Shown here: one piece after another, positions 15,001 through 21,000 of the stretch
Position numbering within the stretch: position 1 is the stretch's first letter
Layout: each line of letters opens with the position of its first letter
NCBI GenBank assembly: GCA_963766075.1
Contig: CAVYAN010000058.1
Location: forward strand, 1-23,601
DNA length: 23,601 nucleotides
Direction: 5' to 3'
Source: an uncultured cyanobacterium
GTDB lineage: Bacteria > Cyanobacteriota > Cyanobacteriia > Leptolyngbyales > Leptolyngbyaceae
Position numbers: made by a program

Positions 15001-18000
15001 GATGGACGAGTCGGCATCAGGGGAGCTGTCCCTTTGGCATCTGTCTGCGCCCCGGCCCGGATGCTGATGACACCATTGCCTTTTCCAGTTGGTCCTATCG
15101 TCCGCCCTATTTGCCTAAAACCATGAGTATCGCGGTGGGCAACAATGCCGATCGCTTAACGGAGCCGATGCTGTTCCAGATTGCATCGCGGCAACGTCCC
15201 GATCAATCCCCGCCGGAAAAGGCTCAACCACTCGATCATGGGATTGACTTGCGCGAAATTACACGGGTGGAGTTGGTCGGTCCTTTTGCCGATCCTCTGT
15301 CTCCCGAACTGCACGCGGTGCTGGACACCCAACAGGTCACGTTGCGGCGAGGAACAGACTATTGTGTAGAACTGGGTTTTGATGGAGAAGTTCGGGGGCA
15401 CCAGGTGGATTTTCGGCCCGGATTACCGCTGATAATGCGTTGGTGATGCCCAAGTTACCTAGCCTTGGCCTCGGCCCACTTAGCCCACTTAAGATTTTTC
15501 CTTCTGGCTCAGCTCAGCCAATTAAAGTCGTTATACAACCTTGTTAATTCCTCCGAAAATGCTTAGTTTAGTTTTTCATGAGTTATTAAGCTTACTGCAT
15601 TAAATTTCCCCACCAACCAAGCAAAGGATGGTCCTTACCTGGCATATATTTTCCTTTAGTTCGTATAGATCCAAGTACAGCGCGTAATTCGGTTAAAGTA
15701 AGATTTCCGGCTTCTGACCAATTCTTAATTATTTCTAAAGTTGATAAAACCTGTAAATCAGGTGCTTCTTTTTGAGACAATGAAATCGCTTTTTTGTCGT
15801 CAGTGGCAACTGCCCACCCTCGATGAATTGCAATGGAAAAAGTTGCAGATTCCCCGTCATCGCCTAGTTCAAAAGCATAGTTTACAAACGTCTCTTCCTC
15901 CGCTTCTGACTCGAAATCCACTACTGAAAGCAAATCCTGTGCAATGGCTGTCTCAAACTGAACTGCGCCTTCATTCTCCTCATTTTGGAGGCGTTGAAGC
16001 GTTAGCAGTTCTTTCTCTCTCACGACTTCAGTCACTACAACTTGAGCAGGGATTGACTTCAAAATTGCAATGAAATGCCCCGAAGCACAGAAGTTAAGGA
16101 CACAACAAGCGTCAAGAACAACATGGGAGTGTCTAATTTGCATAACTGATCTCCCTGTTTTCCTATGCTTGACGCAAATCTAAATGAGCAGTTTCTTCCA
16201 TGATTCCACTTGAATGTTCACGCAATGCCTCTGCAATGCGTCGAGCTTCCAAGCGGTCAACACCAAGGAAATCTGCAAATCGTCCTTCAGTGATGAGTCC
16301 CTGATCTAAAGCCTCAATTGCCAAGTGTTGATAGTGAGTGGGTACTACGTCAGTGCGCTGTTGAATGTCTTCTAAGCCTAGCTCCTGCTGTACTTTCCTT
16401 ACTTTCAATCCGCGATCTCGTAATCGATCTCCAGTGCCAGAGGGTAAAAGCCCCATTTCTTCTAAGCGATAAATTAGGGCTTCTATCGATACTCCGTAGT
16501 AGTGGGCAAGAGTAAACAAATTAGTTGGCGTGAACTTGCCGTGAGTGCGATGCATATCATTGAATCGTCTGAGCAGACCACTTGAAGGCATTAAGAAATA
16601 TTTTGGAAACGCCTCAGCTAAACGCTCACTTTCTGGGATTCTTTGGTATTGCCCCTCGAAGTCAAATACAGGCTTTCGTCGATGGGCAAGAAAATGAAGG
16701 TATCCATGCGCCATTGACCAGCGCCGTCGTTCTTCATAGTGGTCTAAGTTAATAGCCATGCAGCCACCAAGCTGCTCATCATAGCTATAAATTTCTGAGT
16801 ACTTTGCTGGCATTTTCAGATAGAAAATTCGGATGCCTACACTTTGTTCCAAGATGTCTCGCAGGAGTGGAATCGGACCATCGCCCAGTCCAATCCTTTG
16901 ACGTTCGGCGATCGCGATACTTTCTGCGGCAGCCTCTATCGGCATACTGGTCACGTCATACTCTTGAGGATAGTTTCGAGGAAGTGGAGCATCCACAATC
17001 TTCTCAAGTTCTAGATAATTTCGACATAACTCCTCTAAACGCTGAATGATCGGGTCAATTCGTGCTTCCTCTTGTTCACTCCGCTGATAAGCAGCGCGAA
17101 ATTGAACGGCGAAAGGTTCAATCACAGGGCTAGGGCGAACAAAGTCACTAATGGCTCGCCCGTAGGCGCGAGCCAGTTTAATCAACTCATTTGGCTTCAG
17201 ACGGCGTTCGCCTTTCTCAATCGCGACGATGGTAGTTCGGGCAGCATCAATAACCTTAGCGGCATCCGCCTGAGTCATCCCACACTTCTTACGCGCCTGT
17301 TGCAGCAGATCCCCTAGATTACGTAGATCAATATTGTCCAGAATATTGGTAGCCATAGCATTTCCCCTTCAGCCTTACTGAACAGCAATCAGATAATCAT
17401 CAGATGTTTGCCGATTGCTTATTTGATTCAAGAGATCTACTGAGATGTGCAGATTCTACAGCATCCCACTCAGTAACATAAGCTTGATAAAGACGAATCA
17501 AATGTTTCTGCATATCAGCAGGCAGTAGAATTTCTGCCATAGCCGTTCGATCCACAATGTCGTCCAGATCTGGAAATCTTCGGGTTAAAGATTCCCATTG
17601 GAGATTAAGGTTGTCTGAGACATTTAATAAATCTCTAAGAGTAGAAACTTGCGCCAGCATATGTCGCAGATACAAACTAGTGTCTCCTGCTGGCTTTCTA
17701 CCATGGGGAACTATGTATGGAGTTTTGTCTTCCATCTCTAAGGCAGCAAGCGCCTGCTTCCTCAAAATACAAGAAGAACAATACCCACACTGGATGGGTT
17801 GCTGTCGATGTGGACTATCGCATGACATCGTTAGCGGTGGCAGGTCATTTCTCTTATCTTCAGCTAATGGTTTACACATTTCCGCTTTAGTCCAGAAAAG
17901 GAAAGGGTTTTGTACTTTGAATTCCTCTCCTAAAAGCTCTGAAATGATATCACTTATTCTTAGCAAGGTTAATGGATGAACTGAGCGAGAATGATCAAGC

Positions 18001-21000
18001 CCTATGGCAGACTTACGGTATGGAAGATTGATTGCACCAATACCATTTTCGTACAAGTAAAGAATTCTTTGTCCCATTAAGTACGCACAGGCTGCACCCA
18101 ATAGCATAAATACAATGCCTCGCGCACGCGAGATTTTGTTCTTTTGATGCAGGCTACTCTCGGAGAAGCGAATTGGAACTCGACAAAGGTTCAAACGGTT
18201 AGGAAAAGAGGATTGAAATGCTTGGAATACTTGTTCCTGACGAGCAAGGGTGTTTTCATTGCTGCCTGTTCCAAATAGCATGAACGATACTTCATTACTT
18301 GTTTTAAGGCGGCTATAAAGCCCCGCAAGCGCATCAAGTCCCCCACTCCATAGTGTTACCTCCCCCACATAAGGATCTGCCGATGAAAGAAGAGGTTGCT
18401 GCTCAACAAAACGTCCTGAGTCAAGCCTCTTATGAAAATCGAACAACCATCGACTTCCGGTAGCCCACTCAAGCAAATTAGAAAGCTTATCTTGAAAGGA
18501 GGTCAGATTTAGTAATTCTGGATGACGTACTGGAAGAAATACACAAATGCGAGTCTGTTCTTGTCGCAGGCTTTGGAAAGTAAGACGATCAGTGGCATGA
18601 ATAGCAACAGCAAGATCAATCAGATCAGCAATGATTGATGGAAACTCTTGTTGTACCCGACATCCAAACCCACTGTCATCTATAGCAATGCCTATGTTGC
18701 TTTCCTTACCTCTGGAATGATCAATACAGCGAACATTCCCATTACTATTCATTATAGGGTCAAAAAACAAGGTGTAATTTCTGTCGTATGTGTCATGCTT
18801 TTTCATAATATTCAACCTGCTAAGAGATCCTCGTCTAGATCTATTGCCTTCCGTGAAGAACGCCTAGGTAGAGACAATTTAGCTACACTTTGTTTATTAA
18901 TCGCATCTTTAGCAAATTTACTAATACCATCCTTTATATTTGACTCCATTTCCTTAATGCGCCCTGAAAGAGTTGCTTGATCAATACCAGCATAATGCTC
19001 AGAAGTGAGTGGAACGCGTTCCTTAAATTCTGATTCATATACTTCATTCATATAACGCTGTAGCATCACAACTGAAATATTGCCAACATCTAGTTCTTGA
19101 CCATATCTCAAATCGCAAATAACACTCTTACCAGCACGAAGGGCAAGCTCTTTGAGATCTGGTCGTCCATCAGATTGCTGCACCAGCCTATCAAACTCCA
19201 TGCTCAAGGAAGTGTAGTCTTTTGCTCCAAGCTCATCGCTTGCAGTAATAAATTGAGCAACAATATCTGCCATCCCTTGACAAAGTCTGATAGGAAGATC
19301 GCCTTTTTGGATCAGGTCTTTTTTAAGGGACTCCAACACAGTCCGAGCACATTCATCGCTGGTGGCTTTTCCCTCGCAAAGCCATTTGTATGGCTTCTGG
19401 TAAAGCCTTCTGAGCCTGTTATGAACAATATCTCCATCGGGCATAGCAGCACCTCCGTCGGTCGGAGTTTGTTTCTACTATTAAGGTAGCCCTTAGATCT
19501 GACATTGTCAATGTTTAACATTTATTTTTTGCGAGAAATGTCAACTCAGTGACGTTGATACAAACTTAGACTGCTTCTACTGAGGGTGTTGTAGGCTTGA
19601 GGATCGTTTTTCTAAGAATTTTGCATTCGTGCATGGTTTGAACAGGCTATAACAACGCCCATAACCACAATCTCCTAGAGGTGATTGGGTTATGGCAGAG
19701 GCTATCCGCAGCAGACGATAGGCACCGTTCTCTTAGGCTCCCAGCCTTCTAAGCTTGCTCCCTTCTACTTTACTCAGGGAGCAAGCCCGGTCGGTAGAAA
19801 TCCTGTATGGCAAGCCCCTTAGGGATCCTCTTGCAGTAGGGGCAAGACAATCTGAGAGGGGTATGCGGCACCGCTCTGGAGGCTAATGGTGATGACACGT
19901 TGATCGATCTGGCGACTCGTGGCGGGGAAAGTGCCATCTCCGGCATTGATGGGATAGGCGGGGAAGCAGGCGGCACTGATGCTGAGCCGGAGGGCGTCCC
20001 CCGCCGCAATTTGGACGCAGGTTGGTTGTAGGCTGATCTGTCTTGGTTAGGCTGATCTGGCTTGAGGGAGACGTGCCGGATTCAAACCGACCATAGCCCT
20101 GGGTGATGTTGATCACGCTACCGGTGGGTGTCACCCTGGACAGCACCGCACAGAGATCAAAGCTAGGCGCATCAATCCCTGGGGCCGTGGCGGAGCAGTA
20201 GAGGTCAGCCCGGACCTCCCCCGCAATGTGAAGGGTTTGGGGCAGGGGCTCGGTGGTGTAGGTGAGAATATCAGTGCGGCAGTCGAGGCTGGCGCGATCG
20301 CAGGGACCAGTGGGCACAGCGGCATGCCCTCCCAGCACGGGCACGGGCCGCCACGGATCATGAACCAGCCGATCCGTTGCCTCAGGAATTGGGGCTTGGG
20401 GGTGGAGGATGAGTTTGCCGTCTTCATCCCGCAGGGCCGCCAGTCCAGTGCTGGCCAAGTAGAACGGCGTTGGCGTGCTCGGGATCCAGGTGTCAACCTG
20501 ACGCCACTGATTGCGACCCATTTCAAACAGCTGAAGCGGTGCAGCGGCCAGCAAGCCCGTGTCTATGCCTTTGAGGAACTGGTCGAACCAGCGAATTTGC
20601 AGGCGATCGCAGGGCGTGGCGGCTTCTGGGCCAAAGTCGATTGTCCCCACTTTGCGGCCCCAGGGCAGGTGGGCCCACGGCCCAATGATCAGATGCTGGG
20701 GCTGGGTGCTGCGAGCGGCCATGGCTTGATACAAATGCAGGGTGCCGCGCAGAAAGCTGTCGTACCAACCGCCAATGTGCAGCATCGGTAAATCAACAGC
20801 GGCAAAGTGGTTCTTGGGAGAGCAGGCTTGCCAATAGGCGTCGGGGTGGGGGTGATTGAGCCAGTCGTGGTAGAAGGAATCGGAATCGAGAGTTTCGAGC
20901 AGGGGCGATCGCGCCGGGATCGCGGTGCCAAAGTCCAGCCTTTGAGCAGCATTGGCCAAGGCCAAATAAGCCGTTTCATCGCCGCGCCGCCGCAACGTTT

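Follow-up and report, generated by a model that had tools for sequence, protein, structure and literature searches.

In the QatABCD system a partner gene, qatB, directly precedes the gene of an extended QueC-family enzyme, QatC (PDB 9y01/9y02, 9zee/9zef and 9vlk/9vll; PMC13279940, PMC13376578, PMC13639016). QatB and QatC suffice for defence against some phages (PMC13279940), and both the QatC reaction and the anti-phage mode of QatBC were left open in the three structure papers (PMC13279940, PMC13376578, PMC13639016). Two-thirds of QatC-cluster genes have no qatA or qatD neighbour, and canonical QueC is a protein of approximately 220 aa with YxQxHxxE, VPxRN and YPDC motifs (PMC13329287). The combination of an HTH-M78 protein with a PIN protein is a validated toxin-antitoxin type (PMC13273310). 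We analysed a 23,601-nucleotide stretch of DNA from an uncultured cyanobacterium (the window), in which a QatBC-like gene pair is followed by an HTH-M78/PIN pair, and QatA and QatD are absent. No description of this four-gene arrangement was found in the open-access literature, although the supplements of PMC13329287 and of the 2020 Qat discovery paper could list it.

All four minus-strand open reading frames reported in an earlier note on this DNA were recovered intact, with the lengths and motifs given there. Gene 1 (B; 19444-18812) encodes a 210-aa helical protein with the start MPDGDIVH, a probable remote QatB and predicted acceptor; gene 2 (C; 18806-17400) a 468-aa QatC-type QueC-family PP-loop enzyme with a zinc site and the sequence SGGLDA; gene 3 (H; 17356-16163) a 397-aa VapB52-like protein with an Xre-HTH and an M78 (IrrE/ImmA) domain and the sequence HGYLH; and gene 4 (P; 16143-15592) a 183-aa protein of PIN/VapC fold near DUF3368. 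The low-GC island was likewise confirmed (0.437 over the four-gene region versus 0.554 to its left, 0.575 to its right and 0.535 in the whole genome), and the 3853 bases of the cassette hold one HIP1 site versus 35 in the remaining 19748 bases of the window. The island edges are not joined by any integration repeat longer than 8 bp, and the surrounding genes are mostly housekeeping genes, with neither qatA, which encodes a KAP NTPase, nor qatD, which encodes a TatD protein, in the window. The PADLOC matches were reproduced for gene 2 (QatC, 7.3e-43) and gene 3 (RmrA, 1.5e-24), with none at E ≤ 1 for genes 1 and 4. The earlier view of a QatC-type cassette without QatA and QatD, in which a partner occupies the position of QatB, is supported, and to it we add a fold match of gene 1 to QatB and a predicted QatBC-like interface.

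Gene 2 scored 155.6 bits against the curated QatC model NF041925, below the cut-off of 280, and all 61 aligned relatives matched the same model (best E 3.3e-51). It has the PP-loop in common with QatC, together with the RxRxxxF (R227/R229/F233), ExG (E253/G255), HP (H277/P278) and P(x)4TK (P301-T306-K307) motifs and the Cys4 zinc site (C329/C340/C343/C346); S154, D158 and the four Cys are kept in 70/70 copies. Unlike QatC, which has SGGxDS and TRT, gene 2 carries SGGLDA and SRS. The second Ser of SGGxDS is Ala in 44, Ser in 25 and Gly in one of the 70 copies (Ala159 here), and S273 and S275, which are Ser in 63 and 62 of 70, replace two "invariant" QatC Thr (T278/T280). In the enzyme tree gene 2 formed a clade apart from canonical QatC; because this tree is unrooted and a QueC outgroup was not retrievable from the genome by motif, it is silent on a single origin of both cassette clades. 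Canonical QueC was ruled out by the length of 468 aa, the absence of QueC motifs and a TIGR00364 score of 16.1 bits versus a cut-off of 150.3.

Judging from its structural model, gene 1 is probably a distant QatB. In one of three fold searches the top match was QatB (9y01_A; Z 7.8, rmsd 4.8, 164 aligned residues), a middling score for a protein built of helices; QatB was absent from the listed rows of Foldseek, where nothing reached E ≤ 0.001, and from those of a wide fold search, which contained short helical matches only (best Z 8.3 over 68 residues). Homology to QatB had previously been called undetectable, and at the sequence level it is still weak (hhalign probability 2.7%, E 0.017; reversed control E 0.17), but a fold match has now been found. 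Gene 1 gave no Pfam, PADLOC or NCBIfam match at E ≤ 1, no usable Atlas match, no PDB sequence match below E 0.05 and no match by tblastn on plasmids; one pattern scan found no relative in viral contigs, the host genome held no QatB match, and gene 1 was found in one of 17 genomes of the phylum of locus L027. In place of MGTS it has the fixed start M-[P/A/S/T]-D-x-D. M-[P/A/S/T]-D-x-[D/S] was found in 127 of 150 distant representatives and M-D-x-D in four, counts that favour MPDGD because the metagenome scan was run with an MPDGD pattern and the N-terminus was part of the profile search; among the 15 plasmid copies, 14 start M-[S/T]-D-G-P, and the single MG start among the 150 is a truncated gene call. 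The tail comprises approximately 8 residues beginning M-P-D-G-D, compared with 30-90 residues and MGTS in QatB, and gene 1 is without the Gly2 that is essential to QatB in tested systems.

Prediction of the gene 1-gene 2 complex gave an ipSAE of 0.90, against 0.00 for the best control, although the predictor may have reproduced solved QatBC structures. For comparison, 116 of 157 solved complexes but also 2 of 215 mismatched pairs attained the mark. Runs shared at least 89% of their contacts, and partner pLDDT was at least 85. The predicted interface involves gene 2 loop 257-275 (aligned with QatC N265-H282), gene 2 C-terminal helices 375-420 and gene 1 residues 2-9. Docking in this model would use the same surfaces as QatBC, namely the active-site loop, the C-terminal helices and the partner N-terminus (PMC13279940, PMC13376578), and the partner fold is probably common to both.

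Genes 3 and 4 are best described, from their sequences, as a VapBC52-like pair of HTH-DUF955 and DUF3368-type PIN proteins, gene 3 being the probable autorepressor and antitoxin and gene 4 the probable RNase toxin. The earlier label "RmrA-like" for gene 3 drew on the PADLOC match, but no RmrT match accompanies it and the VapB52 type fits better. RosmerTA consists of an RmrT toxin beside RmrA, with whose HTH-M78 antitoxin architecture gene 3 agrees; RosmerTA itself was ruled out, as neither gene 4 nor gene 1 had a PADLOC match at E ≤ 1 and the partner has a PIN fold. As in VapBC52 (Rv2514c-Rv2515c; PMC13273310), one protein combines an Xre-HTH with an M78 domain, has three Zn ligands and carries an FR motif where the two domains meet, and a PIN gene follows, an order also seen in predicted HTH-DUF955 plus PIN (COG2405/DUF3368, DUF4411) systems (PMC5499597, PMC2701414). 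Gene 3 matched 9vzy_A at E 2e-4, and its His/Cys/Glu spacing appears to match that of VapB52. The Zn ligands H217, H221 and E244 as well as R87 are present in 70/70 copies, and F86 of the FR motif in 69/70. Unlike VapBC52, the pair is co-transcribed behind a QatBC-like pair, this copy has no switch Cys, and its catalytic Glu is replaced by Gly218. Among 70 cyanobacterial and metagenome copies this position is E in 12, D in 20 and G in 38 (G or D in 58), the Glu having changed at least five times on the gene 3 tree, and HExxH is intact in all 15 plasmid copies; the missing HExxH noted earlier therefore holds for this copy but not for the family, in which the intact copies rule out a general loss.

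The PIN fold of gene 4 was confirmed (pLDDT 93.3; Foldseek rows 1y82, 5ecw and 5h4g). A gene 4 PIN profile found nothing below E 0.3 among PDB sequences. Its acidic residues in this copy are D11, E45, D95/D96/E98 and D115. D11, E45 and D95/D96 had been described as invariant, which is true within cyanobacteria but not beyond: 11 of 64 copies have N in place of D11. Genes 1 and 2 are intact in most of these 11, so the nuclease is not necessarily the route by which B-C acts.

One promoter is common to all four genes. On the minus strand, the palindromic operator TGACA-A-TGTCA (19510-19500) overlaps the -35 box TTGACA (19511-19506), a putative -10 box TACCTT (19483..19488) lies 17 bp after the -35 box, and an upstream operator half-site TGACA (19539..19543) lies 33 bp upstream of the -35 copy. 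Of 84 non-redundant leaders, 71 have a pair of TGACA sites spaced by 29-36 bp (shuffle mean 0.1), and the palindrome TGACA(A/T)TGTCA is exact in 39 and within one mismatch in 61 of the 84 (shuffle mean 0.4); in plasmid leaders it is found at no more than one edit in 14/15 (shuffle mean 0.1). The commonest -10 hexamers at that spacing in the 84 leaders are TATACT (15) and TACCTT (10), and the host genome contains the two-site pattern once. Part of the operator palindrome is plain -35 consensus.

Collinearity of the four genes in 26 of 29 genome loci was borne out. The three incomplete loci had been ascribed to a cut contig or match, an explanation that fails for L028, where a natural deletion joined residues 3-48 of gene 1 to residues 271-452 of gene 2. 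In metagenome loci found by gene 1 alone, gene 2 or a piece of it is next in 70/70, with gene 3 in 51/51 and gene 4 in 40/40 where the contig allows, and the same gene order was seen in all 15 alphaproteobacterial plasmid loci examined after a search by gene 2 alone, although the loci counted are not independent of each other. The cassette occurs in 25 plasmid records; these and the metagenome contigs rule out a distribution confined to cyanobacteria, and the cassette is not even chiefly cyanobacterial. Near-full cassettes are patchily distributed (14 in 401 cyanobacterial genomes) and more frequent than canonical QatB (3/401) in the sampled cyanobacteria. The genes flanking 38 cyanobacterial and metagenome loci (202 ORFs) are mostly housekeeping genes, without TatD, and the one weak KAP match is an archaeal-type ATPase two genes from the cassette in L001; named defence genes lie within approximately 4 kb of 6/13 annotated plasmid loci, a count without background control.

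On balance, we favour the reading that the cassette is a Qat-type defence variant that regulates itself, moves horizontally, uses an acceptor other than glycine and owes its stability to an addictive pair. Gene 2 would bind gene 1 one-to-one, as QatC binds QatB, and by analogy with the PP-loop family would adenylate a carboxylate substrate with ATP and join it to the free alpha-amine of gene 1. After Met removal this amine would be that of Pro2 here and of Ser, Thr or Ala elsewhere, one residue before the invariant Asp; Cap9 of type IV CBASS similarly acts on the N-terminal amine of its CD-NTase partner after Met removal, unlike which our cassette has no CD-NTase, Cap10 or CDG-reading Tyr/Asp pair, and its acceptor is not Gly (PMC13279940, PMC13376578). 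B-C would form the defence core, presumably directed against phage. Gene 3 would bind TGACA(A/T)TGTCA over the -35 box, repress all four genes and restrain gene 4 as VapB52 restrains VapC52. Infection or DNA damage would lift repression. Where HExxH is intact, this would happen by self-cleavage at the FR motif, triggered by ssDNA; in G/D copies, the present one included, derepression would have to be weaker, allosteric or dependent on another protease. B-C would then be expressed, and free gene 4 could add RNA cleavage. Such control recalls the DNA-damage-type HTH/peptidase regulation of adjoining immune operons by CapP+CapH and CapK+CapS (10.64898/2026.05.16.725639; PMC13373217), and gene 3 matched capP (1.3e-10) and capH (1.5e-8) in PADLOC; unlike those proteins, it is a single fused protein, lies downstream within the operon and is paired with a PIN protein. 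The addictive H-P pair would also preserve the cassette, which may explain the repeated loss of B-C with H-P and the promoter kept.

It is possible, if unlikely, that the four genes form an integrated relay, with B-C as sensor and gene 4 as obligatory effector, in which modified B acts on gene 3 to free the PIN RNase and H-P replace QatA/QatD as output. The B-C pair was never seen without gene 3 downstream (51 metagenome, 14 near-full cyanobacterial and 15 plasmid loci), divergence is correlated among the four proteins (Spearman 0.79-0.87, 51 loci), and the Glu of gene 3 changed repeatedly while its Zn ligands and FR motif were kept, all of which would suit such a relay; however, canonical QatBC protects without further genes (PMC13279940), the D11N change in gene 4 mostly accompanies intact B-C, and the HExxH kept on plasmids implies an own trigger there. 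Distinctly doubtful is a more specific proposal, that a metabolite is put on the secondary amine of the N-terminal Pro (or on Ser, Thr or Ala) as the first non-glycine acceptor, and that the tagged QatB-like protein replaces ssDNA-triggered self-cleavage in the pseudo-peptidase antitoxin, derepressing the operon and freeing the PIN RNase. We also regard as rather improbable a stress-response or selfish maintenance module without anti-phage function, in which addictive H-P carries B-C as cargo (e.g. in plasmid competition or dormancy control). The largely housekeeping flanks of chromosomal and metagenome loci, the frequent deletion of B-C with H-P kept, the abundance on plasmids and the absence of gene 1 relatives from the scanned viral contigs would suit such a module. 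Patchiness and frequent loss are also typical of defence genes, however, and defence genes flank nearly half of the annotated plasmid loci. For both halves, moreover, the nearest relatives that have been tested act against phage (PMC13279940, PMC13273310).

Partial degeneracy of this copy or of the cyanobacterial branch, with a weak SGGLDA enzyme, an HGYLH gene 3 that is not inducible and persistence by addiction only, appears clearly improbable. Ala159 and Gly218 are combined here, 5/29 genome loci have frameshifts (L010, L023, L016, L013 and L015), L028 bears its deletion and six loci have internal gene 2 deletions (L058, L059, L077, L085, L124 and L097); yet the four ORFs are intact in this copy, Ala159 (44/70) and Gly218 (38/70) are majority states over many genera with other catalytic positions invariant, and some frameshifts are perhaps assembly errors. 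Very slight is the chance that H-P is an independent toxin-antitoxin pair merely beside a two-gene B-C unit, as the earlier note had allowed. Lone HTH-M78 and PIN pairs are known (PMC5499597, PMC2701414), and gene 2 is absent upstream in 11 of 26 gene 3-clade genomes, but in eight of these 11 (9/12 with one truncated locus) the cassette promoter stands directly before gene 3, and a profile matched the first codons of gene 1 in two gene 2-less loci. The plasmid clade, moreover, keeps the same operator and order at approximately 26% gene 2 identity, and no B-C pair lacking H-P was encountered. One promoter, co-divergence and lone pairs that are mostly deletion products retaining the promoter make an independent passenger unlikely and largely refute that alternative.

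The favoured Qat-type variant also differs from QatABCD in being tied to an HTH-M78/PIN pair and operator. With its very short tail, non-glycine N-terminus, altered substrate-site residues, defined promoter and operator and candidate effector, it is a natural variant in which the amine position can be separated from the glycine requirement and induction offers a ready read-out. Gene 2 falls below the curated QatC cut-off, and in the sampled cyanobacteria the cassette is commoner than canonical QatB. The cassette may account for part of the QatC-cluster genes without a qatA or qatD neighbour. On plasmids, its annotation is 7-cyano-7-deazaguanine synthase or hypothetical protein.

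The four-gene island described in the earlier note was recovered as reported: on the minus strand (19444..15592), the ORFs for B, the QatB-like partner (210 aa), C, the QatC-type enzyme (468 aa), H, the HTH-M78 protein (397 aa) and P, the PIN protein (183 aa), were all found, and the GC content is low (0.437 vs 0.554 and 0.575 on the two sides). HIP1 sites number one in the 3853 bases of the block vs 35 in the remaining 19748 of the window. The block is foreign to the host genome, within which B, C, H and P have one match apiece. Nothing unusual turned up among the neighbouring window genes that were scanned (peptidase S15, cupin, isochorismatase and glycoside hydrolase 15). 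The peptidase S15 ORF (CocE/NonD-like; 19883-21469, minus strand), beside the island edge, is possibly frameshifted: its C-terminal PepX_C match covers the profile no further than position 135 of 217, and its final residues look out of frame.

With C as query we obtained 29 loci in species genomes, and all four genes were indeed collinear at 26. The three incomplete loci had been attributed to a cut contig or match, which holds for L027 and L029, both stopping at contig edges, but not for L028, a natural deletion. Metagenomes were searched with B alone to avoid selection on C, 80 of 116 loci being returned; among these B-found loci, which include near-duplicates, those with enough sequence had C or a C fragment next in 70/70, H in 51/51 and P in 40/40, with identities to the window copy as low as 21% (B), 39% (C), 53% (H) and 29% (P). 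When plasmids were queried with C, nine of the eleven regions opened showed canonical qatABCD, and the remaining two, from Bosea and Roseomonas, had the same B-C-H-P layout. The Bosea enzyme as query gave 25 plasmid records, with B, C, H and P in order at all 15 examined; at one plasmid locus (L179) C is split. One relative of B was named in a Chitinophagales genome. In an unrooted tree, canonical QatC, the plasmid copies of C and its cyanobacterial/metagenome copies form three distinct groups with good support. Canonical QatB of the MGTS type occurs in three of 401 cyanobacterial-phylum genomes (L046 and L047 in G173 and G264, L160 in G106), with QatC seen in two of these cases.

C matches the PADLOC QatC model at 7.3e-43 and solved QatC chains at 2.5e-22 and 4.5e-22, with an NCBIfam QatC score of 155.6 bits, under the cut-off of 280. 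In the alignment to solved QatC, S154, D158, R229 and F233 of C correspond to QatC S156, D160, R233 and F237, and C329, C340, C343 and C346 to the zinc cysteines. C differs from QatC at the second Ser of SGGxDS (Ala 44, Ser 25 and Gly 1 of 70 copies) and at the Thr pair T278/T280, described as essential in QatC (PMC13279940), where C has Ser in 63/70 and 62/70, respectively. We infer a putative ATP-dependent ligation for C, and nothing more specific. The cassette does not qualify as QatABCD. Table S2 of the QueC-family survey (PMC13329287) gives qatA (34%) and qatD (34%) as the sole listed neighbours of the QatC cluster.

The B family comprises 410 clusters at 50% identity. Among the best 150 of the 410 cluster representatives, 127 start M-[P/A/S/T]-D-x-[D/S] (P 103, A 18, S 4, T 2), a count from a profile that took in the N-terminus and so favours the motif; of the others, four start M-D-x-D, in nine the motif follows an internal start, and ten are truncated or otherwise different. 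The plasmid copies, found through C, provide an independent check, and 14/15 start M-[S/T]-D-G-P. Met is kept before Asp, and the Met-aminopeptidase rule, under which Met is removed, covers Pro. Removal before small residues is documented in PMC13279940. In both main forms the free amine would thus belong to the residue just ahead of the invariant Asp. Residue 4 was considered as a displaced acceptor Gly and rejected, because Gly stands there in only 95/127.

A fold search in a second look, using the B model (pLDDT 85.5), gave QatB 9y01_A as top match (Z 7.8, middling for a helical protein; rmsd 4.8 over 164 residues; B model 9-195 vs QatB 64-286), and two QatB entries were the only ones among the matches listed with more than 115 residues aligned. 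QatB was not among the matches listed in two other fold searches with this model, and the profile-profile match of B to QatB was weak (E 0.017; reversed control 0.17). Complex prediction with B without Met1, C, ATP and Zn gave an ipSAE of 0.90 (best control 0.00), a score that may reflect memory of solved QatBC; the mark for such complexes was reached by 116/157 solved complexes and 2/215 mismatched pairs. At least 89% of contacts agreed between runs, with partner pLDDT of at least 85. On the C side, the predicted interface comprises 257-275, 375-420 and positions close to the active site; on the B side it comprises 2-9, 77-114 and 134-147. QatC binds QatB through these same surfaces (PMC13279940, PMC13376578). 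Overall, B is probably a remote QatB in which the glycine and the long tail have been lost.

H combines HTH_3 and Peptidase_M78 and matches 9vzy_A (E 2e-4), which we identify, from residue spacing, as a putative VapB52; HTH-M78 + PIN pairs were predicted earlier (PMC2701414 and PMC5499597). The FR motif is kept in 69/70 copies and the Zn ligands in 70/70. H had been said to lack HExxH, which is correct for the window copy, with Gly at the catalytic Glu position, but not for the family: the 70 copies have G 38, D 20 and E 12 there, and HExxH is intact in 15/15 plasmid copies. The position changed at least five times on a tree of 50 non-redundant rows. The seven Glu-bearing copies of the cyanobacterial branch are nested inside Gly-bearing ones, which suggests that the peptidase segment reverted or recombined. 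The PIN fold of P was borne out by structure model and fold search, and P lies near DUF3368 (score 0.98, the family being found on 29% of members). The acidic residues of P, noted earlier as invariant, are intact in the window copy; D11 is N in 11/64. Intact HEYCH is present in a further, more distantly related HTH-M78 + PIN pair (L157, in G242), which adjoins a cluster that by eye resembles the multi-ubiquitin/E2/JAB type.

We also found a common promoter, TTGACA-17 bp-TANNNT, in the cassette leaders, where a palindrome, TGACA(A/T)TGTCA, encloses the -35 box; about 32-33 bp further upstream lies another TGACA. Of 105 leaders 84 are non-redundant; 39 of these have the exact palindrome and 61 have it with at most one mismatch (0.0 and 0.4 on average after shuffling), and 71 have the two sites 29-36 bp apart (0.1 on average after shuffling). 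In the whole genome the combined pattern has a single occurrence, at the cassette locus. In plasmid leaders the palindrome was present within one edit in 14/15. This operator-promoter is a new finding. Since H, with its highly conserved HTH, is the sole DNA-binding candidate of the cassette, the natural inference is that H would autorepress the cassette through the putative operator.

Near-full C was found in 14 of the 401 cyanobacterial genomes, remnants in two and canonical QatC in two. The H clade occurs in 26 of the 401, with C upstream in 15 and not in 11; the operator-promoter is kept directly before H at eight of the 11 C-less loci and at one truncated locus, and the first codons of B at two of the H-clade loci without intact C. 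Internal deletions of C with H intact were seen at L058, L077, L085, L124 and L097, and B-C without H at none of the locus sets surveyed. This pattern of loss fits an addictive repressor/antitoxin that cannot go before the rest, and a B-C core that is costly and can. Further decay products are fusions, one of a C piece with a PIN piece (L045, in G370) and one of an H N-terminus with the PIN C-terminus (L156, in G166).

Each half of the cassette, QatBC-like and VapBC52-like, is of a known kind, and the whole would work like the two systems combined. No description of the fixed B-C/H-P union, the operator or the N-terminal motif was found in searches of an open-access library. We lean, with slightly better than even confidence, towards an autoregulated Qat-type defence variant, in which B-C would serve as the defence core with a non-glycine acceptor on B and the VapBC52-like H-P pair would regulate and stabilise it. 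An integrated relay, whose output runs to P, is a possible but rather unlikely alternative. That the cassette is a degenerate branch seems improbable to us. Least probable is that H-P sits by chance beside B-C; the pairwise distances of B, C, H and P correlate at 0.79-0.87 over 51 loci.

Non-defence cargo we regard as unlikely, less so than a degenerate branch and more so than the relay. By raw count, the flanks of 38 cyanobacterial/metagenome loci (202 ORFs, at most three per side) are mostly housekeeping, with few defence-type matches (ThsA macro, two Piwi, Uma2, DUF4365 and SNF2) and integrases at two loci. By contrast, a named defence gene lies nearby at 6/13 annotated plasmid loci (Shedu, AbiEii twice, Eco57I, Lit and dGTPase), both figures being raw counts uncorrected for background. 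Downstream of the cassette in Nostoc punctiforme NIES-2108 (L021:11340-13691) are two genes, one for a Thoeris ThsA macro-domain protein and one for a DUF4062 protein. Large Pfam-negative ORFs (805-1167 aa) adjoin it at four metagenome loci (L071:8265-11765, L076:7069-10140, L112:9701-12115 and L093:3594-6830) and are candidate defence genes. Piwi-domain (prokaryotic Argonaute-like) genes stand directly downstream on the same strand at L102:11065-13230 and L108:11022-13235, two loci of the clade with PIN D11N.
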